DNA of 64,000 nt, taken from assembly GCF_050920415.1 (NCBI RefSeq), contig NZ_CP169309.1; one strand, written 5' to 3'. How positions within the stretch are numbered: the first letter of the stretch is position 1; each line of letters starts with the position of its first letter. The notes under the pieces were generated by a model. The model ran no database searches and was not told the origin of the DNA. It was given only the letters and a program-made list of their open reading frames with translations. Positions 2,515-58,873 of this stretch are shown in pieces. The translations under genes and the position numbers were made by a program. The stretch is from Escherichia coli. Its GTDB lineage: Bacteria; Pseudomonadota; Gammaproteobacteria; Enterobacterales; Enterobacteriaceae.

Positions 2515-2952
2515 TTATTGAGCTGCTTGTTGATTCTGATATGCAGTAAGGAAATGTTCCGGGTTTGCCACATCACTGTTTGACAACTCATCACTGTAGG
2601 CCACCGACCAGGTCGCCTGCTCATCCGGAATATGCAGGCTGCCATTCCCCTCTTTCAGGCGTAATAACTCAAAAGATTTGCCCTTAATTACGGCGGTATA
2701 GGATTTTTCACCTTCCTGTAATGCTTTCACTTTACAGCGAAAAATCTGGCCATCGATGTCATTATCAACATGCGATACCTGAATGAGGGCTTCATTAGAG
2801 GCTTTCGGCCCTATCCGCATCATCCACACCACAGCGCCTTCCTGCCCACGATAGCCAAAAACATATTTACCGATTTCCGGTTTGACCGTATCGGCAAACG
2901 CAGATTGCATAAGTAATAACGCACCCATCAGCGCCGTCATAAAACGCAGCAT
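2515..2952 (-). CDS. Hypothetical secreted protein, 145 aa, with N-terminal Sec signal peptide
   Basis: ORF with GAGGGA Shine-Dalgarno about 5 nt upstream of the ATG; N-terminus MLRFMTALMGALLLMQSAFA then DT (AXA cleavage motif); no family recognised. Confidence 0.6.
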   Translation of the reverse strand: MLRFMTALMGALLLMQSAFADTVKPEIGKYVFGYRGQEGAVVWMMRIGPKASNEALIQVSHVDNDIDGQIFRCKVKALQEGEKSYTAVIKGKSFELLRLKEGNGSLHIPDEQATWSVAYSDELSNSDVANPEHFLTAYQNQQAAQ

Positions 2953-3215
2953 AGTATTCCCTCAATAAATCGCCTGAAGTGGTAGCAGAGATGCAGGCGT
3001 AGCGATCCCTGCCCTGTCCTGTTGCAACGGGCCAGTATTTCATAGATTAATTTCCTACCACTATTGTTGAATTCCGAATTTCATCCTGTATGACAAAAGA
3101 ATGGCTGTAGGGTGGGAAAAAAACACAAAGTAAACAATAATTGACGAATATAGCGCCACGCTGTTCGCAACCTAACCAAACAGTCACTTTCGAGCAATTT
3201 TCCTTGAAAAAGAGG

Positions 3216-3244
3216 TTGACGCTGCAAGGCTCTATACGCATAAT
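3216..3244 (+). promoter_or_regulatory. Sigma70 stable-RNA promoter of the tRNA operon
   Basis: ttgacg, 17-bp spacer, cataat, then GC-rich discriminator gcgcccc, about 40 bp upstream of the first tRNA. Confidence 0.55.
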
Positions 3245-3283
3245 GCGCCCCGCAACGCCGATAAGGTATCGCGAAAAAAAGAT

Positions 3284-3360
3284 GGCTACGTAGCTCAGTT
3301 GGTTAGAGCACATCACTCATAATGATGGGGTCACAGGTTCGAATCCCGTCGTAGCCACCA
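3284..3360 (+). tRNA. metT: tRNA-Met (elongator, CAU)
   Basis: 77-nt sequence ggctacgtagctcag...tcgtagccacca with encoded CCA; anticodon loop ctCATaa. Confidence 0.93.
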
Positions 3361-3368
3361 TCTTTTTT

Positions 3369-3453
3369 GCGGGAGTGGCGAAATTGGTAGACGCACCAGA
3401 TTTAGGTTCTGGCGCCGCAAGGTGTGCGAGTTCAAGTCTCGCCTCCCGCACCA
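3369..3453 (+). tRNA. leuW: tRNA-Leu (long variable arm)
   Basis: 85-nt sequence gcgggagtggcgaaattggtaga...gcctcccgcacca. Confidence 0.9.
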
Positions 3454-3476
3454 TTCACCAGAAAGCGTTGTACGGA

Positions 3477-3551
3477 TGGGGTATCGCCAAGCGGTAAGGC
3501 ACCGGTTTTTGATACCGGCATTCCCTGGTTCGAATCCAGGTACCCCAGCCA
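3477..3551 (+). tRNA. glnU: tRNA-Gln (UUG)
   Basis: 75-nt tggggtatcgccaagcggtaaggcaccggtttTTGataccgg...ccagcca. Confidence 0.9.
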
Positions 3552-4140: not shown

Positions 4141-5316
4141 CTACAACCCTAACGCATATTTCAGCGCCTGCCGTTTCAATACGCCAGCACGCTCCGCCGC
4201 CATTAACCCGAGATTACGCATAAAACGCAGTGGCGGCAGATTATTGCTGAATCCGGCATAAAACAGATCCATACCGCTTTGCATAATGAAGTTATCCGCC
4301 ATACGCCGCATCTGGTAACGCTTGAGGACAGGATAACTGGCCCACGCTTCACCGTAGCTGCGGGCATTCACCAGAACGTCAATCAGCGCATCAACATCGC
4401 GATAACCAAGATTCACCCCCTGCCCCGCCAGCGGATGAATGGTGTGCGCCGCATCGCCCACCAGCGCCAGCCCTGGTTGCACATACTGCAACGCATGGCG
4501 GCGCGTCAGCGGAAACGCACCAGCGGCGAGTGGCATCACGTACCCAAGACGCGACGGGAAATGCTTCGCGATTTCCGCCTGTAGCTGCGCCATATTCATA
4601 TTCTGCAACTGGCGAATGCGTGCCGGAGAGTCATACCACACCAGCGATGCCCAGTTATCAAACAACGGCAGAAACGCACGAGGTCCATCCGGGGTAAATT
4701 GCTGCCAGGTGCTGTCGCCGGGATCGTTCTCACACTGTACGCTAATCAACATACACGACTGTGCATACTGCCAGGCATGAACGCCAATTCCCGCCATTTG
4801 CCGCACCTGCGAATTTGCACCGTCAGCGCCAATCACCAGCTTCGCCTGGATCACTTCGCCCCCCTTCAGTTCCAGTTCCTGAAGATCATTATGGCGATGC
4901 AGAGCAATCAGTGAGCCTGGCACACGTAACGTTACTTTCGGATGCGCCTCCAGCGCCTGCCACAGCGCCTGTTGCAGGACAGTGTTTTCCACCATATAGC
5001 CAAGCAACGGCAGCTTCAATTCGGCTGCATCAAACACCACATGCGCCGTTTCCCACTCCCACGTTTCCAGTCTGCGATAAGGATGGCAACGCATGGCCTG
5101 TACCGCGTCCCAGACGCCTAAACCTTTAAGCAATGATACCGAAGCCGCACTAATCGCCGAGATCCGCACATCCGGCTGGCTGTCAGCGACAAACGGCGCA
5201 GGTTCTGCGTGCTCGATTACCGTTACCGAAAATCCGTGCTGTGCCAGTCCCAGCGCCAGTGCGCCGCCGACCATTCCTCCGCCGACAATGGCAATTTCCG
5301 TTGGTTGATTTGTCAT
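4141..5316 (-). CDS. ubiF: 2-octaprenyl-3-methyl-6-methoxy-1,4-benzoquinol hydroxylase (flavin monooxygenase)
   Basis: GGGMVGG FAD-binding motif; 391 aa if started at MTNQPTEIAIVGGG (track ORF is 2 codons longer). Confidence 0.9.
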   Translation of the reverse strand: MTNQPTEIAIVGGGMVGGALALGLAQHGFSVTVIEHAEPAPFVADSQPDVRISAISAASVSLLKGLGVWDAVQAMRCHPYRRLETWEWETAHVVFDAAELKLPLLGYMVENTVLQQALWQALEAHPKVTLRVPGSLIALHRHNDLQELELKGGEVIQAKLVIGADGANSQVRQMAGIGVHAWQYAQSCMLISVQCENDPGDSTWQQFTPDGPRAFLPLFDNWASLVWYDSPARIRQLQNMNMAQLQAEIAKHFPSRLGYVMPLAAGAFPLTRRHALQYVQPGLALVGDAAHTIHPLAGQGVNLGYRDVDALIDVLVNARSYGEAWASYPVLKRYQMRRMADNFIMQSGMDLFYAGFSNNLPPLRFMRNLGLMAAERAGVLKRQALKYALGL

Positions 5317-5461
5317 GGTCAATCATCCTGTTAGCAATATGCTTTAAGTTTACAGGATTTTTACCCCCAAGGGCTGATAACGCTCATACTGGTCACAACG
5401 GCAGCAAAGCATTACACTATGCGCCCTGCATTCCTGGCTACTATTTCGCAAGAGCAAGTCG

Positions 5462-6886
5462 ATGACCAAAAAACTCCATATTAAAACCTGGGGCTGTCAG
5501 ATGAACGAGTACGATTCATCGAAGATGGCCGATCTGCTGGATGCCACCCACGGCTATCAACTGACCGACGTGGCGGAAGAAGCGGATGTGCTGCTGCTGA
5601 ACACCTGCTCAATCCGCGAGAAGGCTCAGGAAAAAGTCTTCCATCAGTTGGGTCGCTGGAAACTGTTAAAAGAGAAGAATCCAGACCTGATTATCGGCGT
5701 CGGCGGCTGCGTGGCATCGCAAGAAGGCGAGCACATTCGCCAGCGCGCCCACTATGTTGATATTATTTTTGGGCCGCAAACACTGCACCGTCTGCCGGAG
5801 ATGATCAACTCCGTACGCGGCGACCGCAGCCCGGTTGTAGATATCAGCTTCCCGGAAATCGAGAAGTTTGACCGTCTGCCGGAACCGCGTGCCGAAGGAC
5901 CAACCGCGTTTGTCTCCATCATGGAAGGCTGCAATAAATATTGCACCTACTGTGTGGTGCCTTACACCCGTGGTGAAGAGGTAAGCCGTCCTTCCGACGA
6001 TATTCTGTTTGAGATTGCCCAGCTTGCGGCTCAGGGCGTGCGTGAAGTCAACCTGCTCGGTCAGAACGTGAACGCCTGGCGTGGTGAGAACTACGACGGC
6101 ACCACCGGATCGTTTGCCGATCTGCTGCGTCTGGTTGCGGCGATCGACGGGATCGATCGTATTCGCTTTACCACCAGCCATCCGATCGAATTCACCGACG
6201 ATATCATCGAAGTGTACCGCGACACGCCGGAGCTGGTGAGCTTCCTGCATCTGCCGGTTCAGAGCGGTTCCGATCGCATTCTAAACCTGATGGGACGTAC
6301 CCACACGGCGCTGGAGTACAAAGCGATCATCCGTAAATTGCGTGCGGCGCGTCCTGATATTCAGATCAGTTCTGACTTCATTGTCGGCTTCCCGGGCGAA
6401 ACCACCGAAGACTTCGAAAAAACGATGAAGCTGATTGCCGACGTCAATTTCGACATGAGCTACAGCTTTATCTTCTCCGCTCGTCCGGGTACACCAGCCG
6501 CCGATATGGTTGATGATGTTCCGGAAGAAGAGAAGAAGCAGCGTCTGTATATTCTGCAAGAGCGCATTAATCAGCAAGCGATGGCATGGAGCCGCCGTAT
6601 GCTCGGCACCACCCAGCGTATTCTGGTAGAAGGTACATCGCGTAAGAGCATCATGGAGCTTTCCGGTCGTACTGAAAATAACCGCGTGGTTAACTTCGAA
6701 GGCACGCCGGATATGATCGGTAAATTCGTCGATGTAGAAATTACCGACGTCTATCCGAACTCTCTGCGCGGTAAAGTGGTGCGAACTGAAGATGAAATGG
6801 GTCTGCGCGTGGCAGAAACACCGGAATCGGTGATTGCCCGTACCCGCAAAGAAAATGACCTGGGCGTGGGTTATTATCAGCCGTAA
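5462..6886 (+). CDS. miaB: tRNA-i6A37 methylthiotransferase (radical SAM)
   Basis: 474 aa; CxxxCxxC radical-SAM cluster (CNKYCTYC) and C-terminal TRAM region. Confidence 0.95.
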
Positions 6887-52644: not shown

Positions 52645-54108
52645 ATGTCTTTAGCAAAAGATAATATATGGAAACTATTGGCCCCACTGGTGGTGATGGG
52701 CGTCATGTTTCTTATCCCTGTCCCCGACGGTATGCCACCGCAGGCATGGCATTACTTCGCTGTGTTTGTGGCAATGATTGTCGGCATGATCCTCGAGCCA
52801 ATTCCGGCAACAGCGATCAGTTTTATTGCGGTTACTATTTGCGTTATTGGCAGTAATTACCTTCTCTTTGATGCCAAAGAATTAGCTGACCCAGCGTTTA
52901 ATGCGCAAAAACAGGCGCTGAAATGGGGTCTGGCTGGTTTTTCCAGCACCACGGTATGGCTGGTATTTGGCGCATTTATTTTTGCATTAGGGTATGAAGT
53001 TTCCGGGTTAGGTCGTCGCATTGCCCTTTTCCTGGTGAAATTCATGGGCAAACGCACGCTGACGTTAGGTTATGCGATAGTCATTATCGACATTCTGCTG
53101 GCACCGTTTACACCGTCCAACACCGCGCGTACCGGGGGTACGGTTTTTCCGGTCATTAAAAACCTGCCGCCGCTGTTTAAATCATTCCCGAACGATCCGT
53201 CCGCGCGTCGTATTGGCGGCTATTTGATGTGGATGATGGTCATTAGTACCAGTCTGAGTTCGTCCATGTTTGTCACCGGTGCGGCACCAAACGTGCTGGG
53301 TCTGGAGTTCGTCAGCAAAATTGCCGGCATCCAGATTAGCTGGTTGCAGTGGTTCCTCTGCTTCCTGCCGGTTGGCGTTATCTTACTTATCATTGCGCCG
53401 TGGCTTTCCTACGTGCTTTACAAACCGGAAATCACACACAGTGAAGAAGTAGCAACCTGGGCGGGTGATGAACTAAAAACCATGGGTGCGCTGACACGCA
53501 GAGAGTGGACGCTGATTGGCCTTGTATTGCTCAGCTTAGGTTTGTGGGTATTTGGCAGTGAAGTCATTAATGCTACTGCGGTAGGTCTGCTGGCAGTTTC
53601 GCTAATGCTGGCCCTGCACGTTGTGCCGTGGAAAGACATTACCCGCTATAACAGCGCATGGAACACGCTGGTCAACCTGGCAACTTTGGTTGTGATGGCT
53701 AATGGCCTGACTCGTTCTGGCTTTATTGACTGGTTCGCCGGTACCATGAGTACGCACCTGGAAGGATTCTCACCAAACGCAACGGTGATTGTACTGGTTC
53801 TGGTGTTCTACTTTGCGCACTACCTGTTTGCCAGCCTGTCTGCGCACACCGCAACCATGCTGCCGGTTATTCTGGCCGTCGGTAAAGGTATTCCGGGCGT
53901 ACCAATGGAACAACTGTGTATCCTGCTGGTGCTGTCTATCGGTATCATGGGCTGTCTGACGCCGTATGCAACCGGTCCTGGGGTGATTATTTACGGCTGC
54001 GGCTATGTGAAATCAAAAGATTACTGGCGACTTGGTGCAATCTTCGGGGTGATTTACATCTCTATGTTGCTGTTGGTTGGCTGGCCGATTCTCGCCATGT
54101 GGAACTAA
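52645..54108 (+). CDS. citT: Citrate:succinate antiporter
   Basis: 487-aa polytopic membrane protein, DASS family. Confidence 0.93.
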   Translation: MSLAKDNIWKLLAPLVVMGVMFLIPVPDGMPPQAWHYFAVFVAMIVGMILEPIPATAISFIAVTICVIGSNYLLFDAKELADPAFNAQKQALKWGLAGFSSTTVWLVFGAFIFALGYEVSGLGRRIALFLVKFMGKRTLTLGYAIVIIDILLAPFTPSNTARTGGTVFPVIKNLPPLFKSFPNDPSARRIGGYLMWMMVISTSLSSSMFVTGAAPNVLGLEFVSKIAGIQISWLQWFLCFLPVGVILLIIAPWLSYVLYKPEITHSEEVATWAGDELKTMGALTRREWTLIGLVLLSLGLWVFGSEVINATAVGLLAVSLMLALHVVPWKDITRYNSAWNTLVNLATLVVMANGLTRSGFIDWFAGTMSTHLEGFSPNATVIVLVLVFYFAHYLFASLSAHTATMLPVILAVGKGIPGVPMEQLCILLVLSIGIMGCLTPYATGPGVIIYGCGYVKSKDYWRLGAIFGVIYISMLLLVGWPILAMWN

Positions 54109-54176: not shown

Positions 54177-54221
54177 ATTTAATAGATAGTATTCAGTGTA
54201 TGTATGAGTTCCACACCCATT

Positions 54222-55028
54222 ATGAAAGCATTCTGGCGTAACGCCGCGTTGCTCGCGGTTTCTCTGCTTCCCTTCTCTTCTGCCAACGCCGTGGCGTTGC
54301 AGGCAAAACAGTATGGCGATTTTGATCGCTATGTCCTGGCCCTCTCCTGGCAAACCGGATTTTGCCAGAGTCAACACGATCGAAATCGTAACGAACGAGA
54401 TGAATGTCGCCTGCAAACCGAAACGACCAACAAAGCTGATTTTCTGACCGTACATGGTCTATGGCCAGGATTGCCTAAATCGGTTGCTGCCCGTGGTGTT
54501 GATGAACGCCGCTGGATGCGCTTCGGTTGCGCTACTCGCCCAATCCCGAATCTGCCAGAAGCACGCGCCAGCCGGATGTGTTCATCGCCGGAAACTGGGT
54601 TATCGCTGGAAACGGCAGCTAAACTAAATGAAGTCATGCCGGGAGCTGGCGGTCGTTCCTGCCTGGAACGTTACGAATATGCCAAACACGGCGTCTGCTT
54701 TGGTTTTGATCCGGACGCTTACTTCGGCACGATGGTACGTCTGAATCAAGAAATTAAAGAGAGCGAAACCGGAAAATTTCTTGCGGATAACTATGGTAAA
54801 ACAGTGAACCGCCGTGATTTTGATGCCGCCTTTGCCAAAAGCTGGGGAAAAGAGAACGTGAAAGCCGTTAAGCTAACGTGCCAGGGTAACCCTGCGTATT
54901 TGACTGAAATTCAGATCTCGATCAAAGCTGACGCCATCAACGCTCCGCTTTCTGCAAACTCATTCTTGCCACAACCACACCCAGGCAACTGTGGCAAAAC
55001 CTTTGTGATTGATAAAGCAGGTTATTAA
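54222..55028 (+). CDS. rna: Periplasmic ribonuclease I (RNase T2 family)
   Basis: 268 aa from MKAFWRNAALLAVSLLPFSSANA signal peptide; HGLWP active-site motif. Confidence 0.93.
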   Translation: MKAFWRNAALLAVSLLPFSSANAVALQAKQYGDFDRYVLALSWQTGFCQSQHDRNRNERDECRLQTETTNKADFLTVHGLWPGLPKSVAARGVDERRWMRFGCATRPIPNLPEARASRMCSSPETGLSLETAAKLNEVMPGAGGRSCLERYEYAKHGVCFGFDPDAYFGTMVRLNQEIKESETGKFLADNYGKTVNRRDFDAAFAKSWGKENVKAVKLTCQGNPAYLTEIQISIKADAINAPLSANSFLPQPHPGNCGKTFVIDKAGY

Positions 55029-55257: not shown

Positions 55258-55668
55258 ATGTCCAGACCAACTATCATCATTAACGACCTGGATGCCGAAC
55301 GCATCGATATTCTGCTGGAGCAACCTGCCTATTCTGGTTTGCCAATCGCCGACGCGTTAAACGCAGAGTTGGATCGCGCCCAAATGTGTTCGCCAGAAGA
55401 GATGCCACACGACGTGGTGACAATGAACAGCCGGGTTAAATTCCGCAATCTTAGCGATGGCGAAGTGCGTGTGCGCACGCTGGTGTATCCGGCAAAAATG
55501 ACCGATAGCAATACTCAGCTTTCCGTTATGGCTCCGGTAGGTGCCGCACTGCTGGGGCTGCGCGTTGGCGATTCCATTCACTGGGAACTTCCGGGCGGCG
55601 TTGCAACCCACCTTGAAGTGCTGGAACTCGAATACCAGCCAGAAGCTGCTGGCGACTACCTGCTTTAA
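55258..55668 (+). CDS. rnk: Regulator of nucleoside diphosphate kinase (GreA/GreB-like fold)
   Basis: 136 aa. Confidence 0.93.
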
Positions 55669-55810
55669 TCCCATCTGCACAAGCGACAACTCGCTTTGCC
55701 CAGAGGATGCACTCGCATCCTCTTTCCGCTCAAATATCAACCAGATTTATCATTTTGCTCTTAAGCACAGCATTCTAATCTGAACTGGTTATTCATCTGC
55801 GGAACCCCAT

Positions 55811-55900
55811 ATGAGCGAAGCTCTCAGTATCACTGCGTTTTATATATTCATAGCAGCTATTATTGTTGCTGCAGTGCTATACCTTGAACAACGCTGGTAG
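55811..55900 (+). CDS. Possible 29-aa hydrophobic mini-protein (speculative)
   Basis: ATG...TAG ORF encoding MSEALSITAFYIFIAAIIVAAVLYLEQRW, one predicted TM helix; no convincing Shine-Dalgarno. Confidence 0.2.
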   Translation: MSEALSITAFYIFIAAIIVAAVLYLEQRW

Positions 55901-56023
55901 TACCTGGTTTTATTTATTTTCCAGATCAATCGCAAATTCAGATCGAATCAGCCTCGCAAATCATAGATTCATAATCAATAATGTGCTGTTATGTATACAT
56001 GCAAAAACAAGGAGAGAATGCTT

Positions 56024-56452
56024 ATGTACAAAACAATCATTATGCCAGTGGATGTATTTGAAATGGAATTGAGCGACAAAGCTGTTCGCCACGCTGAATT
56101 CCTCGCCCAGGATGATGGAGTTATTCATCTACTTCACGTACTACCGGGGTCAGCCAGCCTGAGCCTGCACCGTTTTGCCGCTGATGTACGTCGTTTTGAA
56201 GAGCATCTGCAACATGAAGCAGAAGAACGTTTGCAAACGATGGTCAGCCACTTCACCATCGATCCTTCCCGCATTAAACAACATGTCCGTTTTGGTAGCG
56301 TGCGGGATGAAGTCAATGAGTTGGCAGAAGAACTGGGGGCTGATGTTGTCGTTATCGGTTCGCGCAACCCATCGATTTCGACCCATCTGTTAGGTTCTAA
56401 CGCCTCAAGCGTTATCCGCCACGCTAATCTGCCTGTACTGGTCGTTCGCTAA
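56024..56452 (+). CDS. uspG: Universal stress protein G
   Basis: 142 aa from [11 protein letters not shown]; the track ORF starts 11 codons upstream. Confidence 0.92.
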
Positions 56453-56573: not shown

Positions 56574-58139
56574 TTATGCTGTTTTGGTGCGAATCAGGTA
56601 GTCAAAAGCACTCAGAGAGGCTTTGGCACCTTCGCCAGTGGCGATGATGATCTGCTTGTACGGAACCGTCGTACAGTCACCCGCTGCGAACACGCCTTTG
56701 ACGTTGGTTTCGCATTTCGCATCAATGATAATCTCGCCCATGCGGTTACGTTCGACTGCGCCTTCGAGCCAGTTGGTGTTCGGCAGCAGACCAATCTGGA
56801 CAAAAATACCGGCCAGTTTGATGTTGTGAATATCGCCGCTGACACGATCGCGATATTCCAGACCAACAACTTTGCTGCCGTCGCCTTTCACTTCCGTGGT
56901 TTGCGCATTCAGAATAATGTCGACGTTTTTCAGGCTGCGCAGTTTGTCCTGCAGAACCTGGTCGGCTTTCATTTCTGGCGCAAATTCCAGCAGAGTTACG
57001 TGTTCAACGATACCCGCCAGGTCGATTGCCGCTTCCACGCCGGAGTTACCACCGCCGATAACCGCTACGCGTTTGCCTTTAAACAGCGGGCCGTCGCAGT
57101 GCGGGCAGTAGGTCACGCCTTTGGTACGATACTGATCTTCTCCCGGAACATTCATGTTGCGCCATTTTGCACCGGTCGCCACTATAATGCTGCGTGCTTT
57201 CAGTACCGCGCCAGAAGCTGTTTCAATCTGATGCAGGCCACCTTCAACCGCTGCCGGAATCAGTTTGCTGGCGCTCTGGCTGTCGATCACATCAACGTCG
57301 TATTCATCAACATGAACTTTCAGTGCACCTGCCAGTTTTTGGCCTTCGGTCTTCGGTACAGAAATGTAGTTTTCGATATCAACGGTATCGAGGATCTGAC
57401 CACCAAAACGTTCACCCATCAAACCGGTACGGATGCCTTTACGTGCGGAGTAAATTGCTGCCGCTGCACCCGCCGGGCCGGAACCAACGATTAATACGTC
57501 ATAAGCATCACGCTTGTTCAGCTCTTCTGCCGCACGTTTTTCCGCGCCAGTATCAATTTTGGCGACGATTTCGGAAATAGTCATGCGGCCCTGACCAAAC
57601 TCTTTCCCGTTTACGAACACTGCCGGAACGCCCATCACGTTGCGATCGGTGATTTCGTTCTGGAAGGTGCCGCCGTCAATTGCCGTATGCTTGATGCGCG
57701 GGTTCAGTACGCTCATCAGGTTCAGCGCCTGCACCACGTCCGGGCAGTTATGGCAAGAGAGCGAGTAATAGGTTTCGAATTCAAAATCACCGTCAATATG
57801 GCGAATCTGCTCCAGCAAAGACTGCGCTTCTTTTGACGGATGACCACCGGTCCACAACAACGCCAGTACCAGCGAGGTGAACTCGTGGCCCATCGGGGAA
57901 CCTGCAAAACGTGGCCCCTGGTTGGAACCTGGGTTAGTGATCAGGAAAGACGGCTTACGCACCGGCAAGCTGTTATCTTCTTTAAAGGTGACTTTGTCTG
58001 ACAGTTCTGCGATTTCAGCCAACAGTTCCTTGATTTCTGCCGATTTAGCGCTGTCATCCAGCGTGGCAATTAACTCAACAGGCTTGGTCAATTTCTCAAG
58101 GTAAGCCTTGAGTTGAGTTTTCATATTTGTGTCGAGCAT
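56574..58139 (-). CDS. ahpF: Alkyl hydroperoxide reductase subunit F
   Basis: 521 aa from [13 protein letters not shown]; CxxC redox centres (CHNC, CPHC); FAD/NAD GxGxxG motifs. Confidence 0.95.
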
Positions 58140-58309
58140 GTTTATCTCCTGGGCTTTAAACATCATCATGCAAGCGGCCTCTGCGGCTACCTGGATGCAG
58201 CTTGCATCATGGTGCGGGGAAGAAAATCGGGTGCCGCAGCACCCGATTAATTAGGTGAATTTCCGAACTATTTCGCGCCGGAGTTGGTAGCGCGAAAGAC
58301 AAAGGAAAT

Positions 58310-58873
58310 TTAGATTTTACCAACCAGGTCCAGAGACGGAGCCAGAGTTGCTTCACCTTCTTTCCATTTAGCCGGGCAAACTTCACCTGGGTGAGAAGCT
58401 ACGTACTGTGCTGCTTTGATTTTACGCAGCAGGTCAGACGCGTCACGGCCAATGCCTTCAGCGGTAACTTCGATTGCCTGGATGATACCCTGCGGGTCAA
58501 CAACGAAGGTTGCACGGTCAGCCAGACCTTCATCTTCACGCATGTTGTCGAAGTTACGGGTCAGGGCGCCAGTCGGGTCGCCGATCATCGCATATTTGAT
58601 TTTAGCGATAGTTTCAGAGCTGCTGTGCCATGCTTTGTGGGTGAAGTGAGTATCGGTAGATACTGCGTATACATCTACGCCCAGTTTCTGCAGTTCTTCG
58701 TAGTGGTCAGCAACGTCACCCAGTTCGGTCGGGCATACGAAAGTAAAGTCAGCCGGGTAGAAGAAGAAGACGCTCCAGCGGCCTTCGGTATCTTTTTCGG
58801 TGATTTCGATGAATTCGCCGTTTTTGAATGCCTGGTTTTTAAAAGGTTTAATTTTGGTGTTAATCAAGGACAT
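58310..58873 (-). CDS. ahpC: Alkyl hydroperoxide reductase subunit C (peroxiredoxin)
   Basis: 187 aa; peroxidatic FTFVCPTE motif and resolving C-terminal Cys. Confidence 0.96.

Follow-up and report, generated by a model that had tools for sequence, protein, structure and literature searches.

Two alternative haplotypes coexist between rnk and uspG in Escherichia coli, and the stretch of DNA analysed in this study, a 64-kb window, carries the one that lacks ybdR. This short allele is common and is already annotated by RefSeq, its small gene yldA being known and ybdR being variable. The short allele was probably inherited, and the longer allele known from K-12 was probably imported into E. coli, a view that is held here with moderate confidence. 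The features of the locus are as follows.

52645-54108, + strand: citT, from the ORF list of the 64-kb window.
54204-55028, + strand: rna, from the same list.
55258-55668, + strand: rnk (nucleoside diphosphate kinase regulator), the left flank, from the ORF list and the RefSeq annotation of strain MFDS1022581; 99.5% nucleotide identity to K-12.
55702-55723, + strand: rnk 3' stem-loop, with a folding energy of -15.5 kcal/mol and a stem conserved across loci.
55730-56005, + strand: core of the short (class-1, ybdR-less) haplotype, with no blastn similarity to K-12; carried by 1,818 of 5,426 E. coli genomes.
55799-55804, + strand: GCGGAA, a putative weak Shine-Dalgarno-like element; G-rich motif conserved at equal distance.
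55811-55900, + strand: yldA (class-1 allele, Ser6 variant), encoding a predicted small membrane protein of 29 aa with a single helix (NF041476; WP_349813939.1), with coding-type conservation.
55970-55975, + strand: CATAAT, candidate -10 element of the uspG promoter, in a block conserved with Citrobacter and compared by eye with K-12.
56024-56452, + strand: uspG (universal stress protein G), the right flank, from the RefSeq annotation; protein 99.3% identical to that of K-12.
56574-58169, - strand: ahpF, from the ORF list of the 64-kb window.
58310-58873, - strand: ahpC, from the same list.

The spacer between rnk and uspG extends from 55669 to 56023 and is exactly 355 bp long, as an initial annotation of this DNA had estimated. 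In this allele rnk, yldA and uspG are co-directional, and RefSeq annotates the same three genes in MFDS1022581, a complete genome identical to the window at this locus. The initial annotation had also stated that ybdR is missing here and had placed it between rnk and uspG in K-12. Both statements were borne out. A tblastn search of the whole 64-kb window with the K-12 YbdR protein gave a best E value of 0.63, which is at chance level, and the annotated MG1655 record shows the order rnk, yldA (+ strand), ybdR (- strand, 1,239 bp), uspG; ybdR encodes a zinc-dependent alcohol dehydrogenase. It had been asked whether K-12 might have the same short spacer after all; it does not, since it carries ybdR.

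Alignment to K-12 had been suggested as a means of locating the boundaries of an indel. In blastn comparisons the window is 99.2% identical to K-12 across rnk and its hairpin, and similarity then fades within a few bases, the alignment ending at 55729. It resumes at 56006, 18 nt 5' of the uspG ATG, and the 276 bp between these points (55730-56005) have no BLAST-detectable DNA similarity to K-12. It is apparent, therefore, that the difference is no simple indel, as 276 bp are unalignable between the flanks. A simple deletion would be recognizable by collinear flanks and/or residual ybdR at the junction, and in the window the flanking spacer sequences cannot be aligned and no remnant was found. 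Of the two origins that the initial annotation had offered, a strain-specific deletion or an insertion in K-12, the second is better supported, but what K-12 carries is not a plain insertion. It is better described as a whole replacement haplotype, consisting of a different yldA allele, ybdR and a different region upstream of uspG.

The frequencies of the two haplotypes were determined in 5,426 complete E. coli genomes, in 5,422 of which the locus was present. The K-12-type segment with ybdR was found in 3,605 genomes and the window-type short core in 1,818, or about a third. As these two counts, less one genome scored twice, add up to 5,422, the classes are disjoint, and the genomes with the short allele do not carry ybdR elsewhere. 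The short core is 90-100% identical to the window within E. coli: the exact variant of the window (at least 99% identity) occurs in 18 genomes from varied hosts, and most other short alleles, including that of the phylogroup B2 strain 536, are 95-97% identical to it. Of the 3,605 genomes with the long allele, 3,579, O157:H7 included, have yldA regions with at least 99% identity. A literature search on ybdR found no report of a present/absent polymorphism at rnk-uspG.

The sole genome counted in both classes is that of E. coli HH97 (NZ_CP116409.1, locus 2825-3492). Here a K-12-type yldA is fused to a 536-like spacer with scattered one-base insertions, giving a 46-aa 'YldA', and behind the spacer lies a fragment of ybdR (codons 1-66), enriched in G and approximately 80% identical. 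HH97 was considered as an evolutionary intermediate and was left out of the evidence, because the sequence resembles what a mixed sample would give in a noisy or chimeric assembly, and not a true third haplotype. It had suggested that a decayed 5' fragment of ybdR might be present at 55960-55985 in the window. The best match there, 17 of 21 bases, is insignificant, being equalled by 17 and 12 of 200 shuffles in the comparisons with the K-12 and Salmonella ybdR genes, respectively, and the conserved uspG promoter block provides a better alignment for these bases than ybdR does. On both grounds the fragment was rejected.

The rnk neighbourhoods of 80 enterobacterial species were fetched, and an HMM was built from the first YldA matches and then used for searching. 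A YldA homologue was found immediately 3' of rnk in 36 of the 80 species and nowhere else in those loci, the genera concerned being Escherichia, Citrobacter, Enterobacter, Lelliottia, Leclercia, Kosakonia, Phytobacter and Pseudenterobacter. The ybdR gene lies between rnk and uspG in 22 of the 80 species loci and may be present or absent within Citrobacter, Enterobacter, Lelliottia and Leclercia, often with yldA retained. When the species were sorted by both genes, 12 of 80 had yldA and ybdR, 22 had yldA only, 10 had ybdR only and 36 had neither. These mixed combinations indicate that each gene has been gained or lost independently. Among the individual cases, Salmonella enterica subsp. diarizonae and arizonae keep ybdR with no detectable yldA, approximately 90 nt separating rnk from the end of ybdR, and the loci of the Citrobacter freundii group, of Kluyvera and, for the most part, of Kosakonia have neither gene.

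A recent loss of ybdR could be recognized in another genus. The 169-bp spacer of Enterobacter asburiae TN152 (locus 1057-1225) consists of the two ends of the interval that carries ybdR in E. vonholyi (5166-6592), its first ~65 nt (95% identity) and its last 101 nt (92%), and is the product of a clean 1.26-kb deletion that left approximately 58 nt of the ybdR 3' end beside yldA. Such losses thus do happen at rnk-uspG. This is in clear contrast to the window, which has no remnant and in which the entire interval is part of a distinct, old haplotype lineage.

The short arrangement, with a YldA of the window type, was also found in E. albertii and in two further non-coli Escherichia genomes, which together make up the Escherichia sampled beyond E. 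coli (neither E. fergusonii nor any of the named cryptic species could be recognized among them). Sequences alignable with the core at 55730-56005 occur in E. albertii, in cryptic Escherichia and in some Citrobacter. Identity to the window over the 276 bp is 95.3% for E. coli 536, 92-93% for the cryptic Escherichia lineages, 85.3% for E. albertii and 70.9% for Citrobacter sp. R56. It drops with phylogenetic distance, so that the divergence of the short allele follows the species tree. A neighbour-joining tree built on the segment from the hairpin to the yldA stop codon placed the window, 536, the cryptic Escherichia, E. albertii and four Citrobacter, all of them ybdR-less, in a clade with 100% bootstrap support, the sister group of which was Kosakonia and Phytobacter (99%). 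K-12 fell outside that clade, among C. koseri and Enterobacter-type sequences. The K-12-type allele is phylogenetically foreign to Escherichia and discordant with the species tree, and it is apparently a young arrival. From these sequence comparisons, the short allele is most likely the vertically inherited state in Escherichia.

The carriage of the short form by outgroups, its phylogeny-matched divergence, the discordance of K-12 and the low diversity of the long allele argue, in combination, that the short form was inherited and that the K-12 form was imported. Homologous replacement, with the conserved rnk hairpin at one end and the uspG ribosome-binding site at the other, most likely brought the K-12-type allele into E. 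coli, where it would then have spread. The anatomy of the locus, the allele frequencies, the family membership and the phylogenetic discordance were observed directly, whereas the direction of the event, import as opposed to loss, is what we infer. No donor of the K-12-type haplotype was identified among the loci compared, and the near-uniformity of the long allele might stem from a sweep or from constraint instead of a recent arrival.

The main alternative is an ancient deletion of ybdR, which would have created the short haplotype, with both forms kept or repeatedly exchanged since before the split of Escherichia and Citrobacter and with the K-12 form ancestral. The K-12 ybdR gene is approximately 80-81% identical at the nucleotide level to the genes of Salmonella and C. 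sedlakii, the same level as for rnk, uspG and ahpF. A ybdR gene that had descended vertically would likewise be expected to have diverged as far as its neighbours, and to this extent the value speaks against import. The occurrence of ybdR in Salmonella, C. sedlakii, Enterobacter, Leclercia, Lelliottia, Silvania and Pseudenterobacter and the demonstrable scar in E. asburiae TN152 point the same way, and the uniform lack of ybdR in the class-1 clade would fit a single old loss. Such a history, however, would have the polymorphism outlast several speciations, with the long form found only in E. coli among the Escherichia sampled and nearly devoid of diversity there, and with no trace of ybdR in the window beyond a 17-of-21-base match of the kind that 17 of 200 shuffles reproduce. 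It is therefore regarded as a possible but rather unlikely account. As for a recent loss of ybdR, confined to one strain or lineage, from an ancestor like K-12, an origin that the initial annotation had entertained, the losses of ybdR in TN152 and in the K-12-like locus of HH97, with its ybdR fragment, make the event itself conceivable, but its probability is negligible for an allele carried by 1,818 of 5,426 E. coli genomes, by E. albertii and by two other Escherichia lineages, with 276 bp that cannot be aligned to K-12 around a yldA only 53% (nucleotide) and 52% (amino acid) identical, when a recent loss would leave identical flanks.

The ORF at 55811-55900 comprises 29 codons and encodes MSEALSITAFYIFIAAIIVAAVLYLEQRW. 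The initial annotation had allowed that it might be coincidental, a suggestion that did not hold: the ORF is yldA, and on the sequence evidence that follows it is a real gene. Its product matches the NCBIfam equivalog NF041476 over residues 1-29 of 29 with a score of 57.9 bits (cut-off 45; E=6.8e-16), the K-12 allele likewise scores 57.9 bits, and RefSeq names the product yldA (WP_349813939.1) in the identical strain MFDS1022581. Thirty-seven yldA genes, those of the 36 loci and of the window, were compared. The length is exactly 29 codons in 37 of 37 homologues across genera, and the column entropies of 0.66, 0.48 and 1.19 at codon positions 1, 2 and 3 (n=37) give yldA the signature of a translated gene. 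In an alignment of 34 sequences M1, E3, A21, V22, L25 and E26 are invariant, and the window has all six. The protein is a single hydrophobic helix with a conserved C-terminal AVLYLE-x-x-W/S motif, which the window sequence fits.

The initial annotation had noted no clear ribosome-binding site for this ORF. It is correct that no canonical Shine-Dalgarno sequence precedes the yldA ATG, but a single weak candidate is present, the GCGGAA listed above, with its GGA 7 nt upstream. In most of the 37 genes the corresponding position is occupied by a conserved G-rich motif (GCGGAA, GTGGGAA or CGYGGGGA), which may serve as a weak Shine-Dalgarno-like element.

The YldA protein of K-12 has been detected by chromosomal epitope tagging and immunoblotting (VanOrsdel et al. 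2018, PMC6001520), as given in Table 1 of that study, which concerns the K-12 allele only. The gene of the window and that of K-12 share family, strand, a length of 29 aa, the six invariant residues and a position approximately 140 nt past rnk; in the window yldA starts 142 nt past the rnk stop codon, on the same strand, and the arrangement in K-12 matches. The two proteins are nevertheless identical at only 15 of 29 residues, and the DNA upstream of yldA in the window is unlike that of K-12. Downstream, K-12 has the convergent ybdR, whereas in the window uspG follows 123 nt on, on the same strand.

The second-best NCBIfam match of YldA was to YoaI (NF041475; E=3.6e-7, 30.2 bits, below the 45-bit cut-off). 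YoaI is a small membrane protein of 34 aa; it binds the sensor kinase EnvZ and activates it, and for both Glu31, in its cytoplasmic tail, is essential (PMC11429745). When a profile of 34 YldA sequences was compared with K-12 YoaI (sequence taken from the genome) using hhalign, a probability of 91.5% was obtained, with E3, V22 and E26 of YldA paired with E8, V27 and E31 of YoaI; this likeness rests on a 27-column alignment of hydrophobic peptides. BLASTP of YldA against YoaI gave no alignment, the likeness being seen by profile methods only. Among the YoaI invariants Ser26, Val27 and Glu31, YldA keeps the valine (V22) and the glutamate (E26), and the serine is replaced by the invariant Ala21. 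Both proteins have a single transmembrane helix, predicted in the case of YldA, and a short charged C-terminal tail, but YldA has an N-terminus five residues shorter, a different locus and different regulation. From these comparisons YldA appears to be a relative of the YoaI family and not a member of it. By homology with YoaI, YldA is predicted to be a single-pass inner-membrane protein, and by analogy it probably binds and modulates a larger membrane protein, for example a sensor kinase, in which case its invariant Glu26 would take the role of YoaI Glu31.

Toxin peptides of the TisB type are close to 29 aa in size. A reading of yldA as a chance ORF, or as a type I toxin-like hydrophobic peptide in place of a regulatory small membrane protein, could draw on this similarity, on the shortness and hydrophobicity of the product and on the missing canonical Shine-Dalgarno sequence. 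The K-12 gene also overlaps the transcription of the convergent ybdR, the ybdR-yldA pair being listed as an excludon (PMC12288877). A chance ORF is excluded by the fixed length, the codon-position pattern and the residues invariant across genera. Against a toxin, the K-12 protein builds up in rich medium when expressed from its native locus, no harm being reported (PMC6001520), a convergent gene from which an antisense RNA could arise is missing from the short allele, and the closest relative, YoaI, is a kinase modulator. This reading is accordingly judged very unlikely.

The hairpin that had been noted near rnk was confirmed. It begins 34 nt past the rnk stop codon and consists of a 9-bp stem (AGAGGATGC/GCATCCTCT) and a 4-nt loop (actc), followed by TTTCC; its fold of -15.5 kcal/mol corresponds to z=-3.9, only 1 of 200 shuffles being as stable. 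The exact stem is present in 50 of 84 loci and a near-exact one in most others, with variable loops and, at the top pair, a few compensatory changes from G-C to A-U. The stem GAGGATGC/GCATCCTC and the trailing TTTCCG are nearly invariant in approximately 80 enterobacterial species, at 18-35 nt past the rnk stop codon. This conservation is unusually strong for an intergenic element with a tail of just three T residues. The element is probably an rnk terminator or a 3'-end stabilizer, although it does not have the U-tract demanded by the intrinsic-terminator scan. A promoter and terminator scan of 55600-56100 returned no sites and no full -35/-10 match, and an Rfam search returned no known RNA family, its two matches being eukaryotic snoRNA models, both below their gathering scores.

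The start codon of uspG was placed at 56024 because the AAGGAG at 56009-56014 is conserved and all homologues agree; the longest uspG ORF opens at an in-frame ATG at 55991, and a start there would lengthen the protein by 11 residues. Compared by eye, the ~60 nt immediately 5' of uspG resemble K-12, with [T/C]ATAAT, TCATG and AACAGGGAGA in common and with TATAAT in K-12 at the distance equivalent to that of CATAAT in the window. This resemblance suggests that the uspG promoter is probably homologous but diverged. The synonymous divergence (dS) of uspG is 0.20 between the window and K-12, 0.44 between the window and 536 and 0.37 between K-12 and 536, and the corresponding values are 0.01-0.02 for rnk and approximately 0.10-0.15 for rna and ahpF. 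The high dS of uspG indicates that the hot spot of diversity reaches from the spacer into this gene. UspG protein identity is 96-99% within Escherichia and 97-99% in E. coli pairs.

Folding revealed no terminator-like structure between yldA and uspG (z=+0.5), so that read-through into uspG is possible, and transcription of the window allele might continue from rnk through yldA into uspG. In K-12, the convergent ybdR, which forms the listed excludon with yldA (PMC12288877), is met 3 nt past the yldA stop codon. Given the co-directional arrangement in one allele and the convergent arrangement in the other, the regulation of yldA and uspG may differ between them.

A more far-reaching proposal, which is offered tentatively and which we consider doubtful, would see here two ancient haplotype lineages, each represented in Escherichia and Citrobacter and differing in the YldA helix, the region upstream of yldA, the uspG promoter and, often, ybdR. 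These lineages might owe their persistence to balancing selection, or genera might have exchanged them repeatedly; where ybdR is lacking, yldA and uspG might constitute one stress-responsive transcription unit with rnk, and the two YldA classes might be functionally distinct modulators of a membrane sensor.

The gene order of K-12 is not the E. coli default at rnk-uspG. The polymorphism is real but ordinary, and what is mildly new is how deeply the two yldA alleles of E. coli have diverged, together with their phylogenetic discordance. The locus also illustrates that a validated small-protein gene can pass for noise when it is read from sequence alone, without tools. Two YldA alleles that are 52% identical, accompanied by differing regions upstream of uspG, provide a natural contrast for the study of YldA, of YoaI-type proteins and of uspG regulation.
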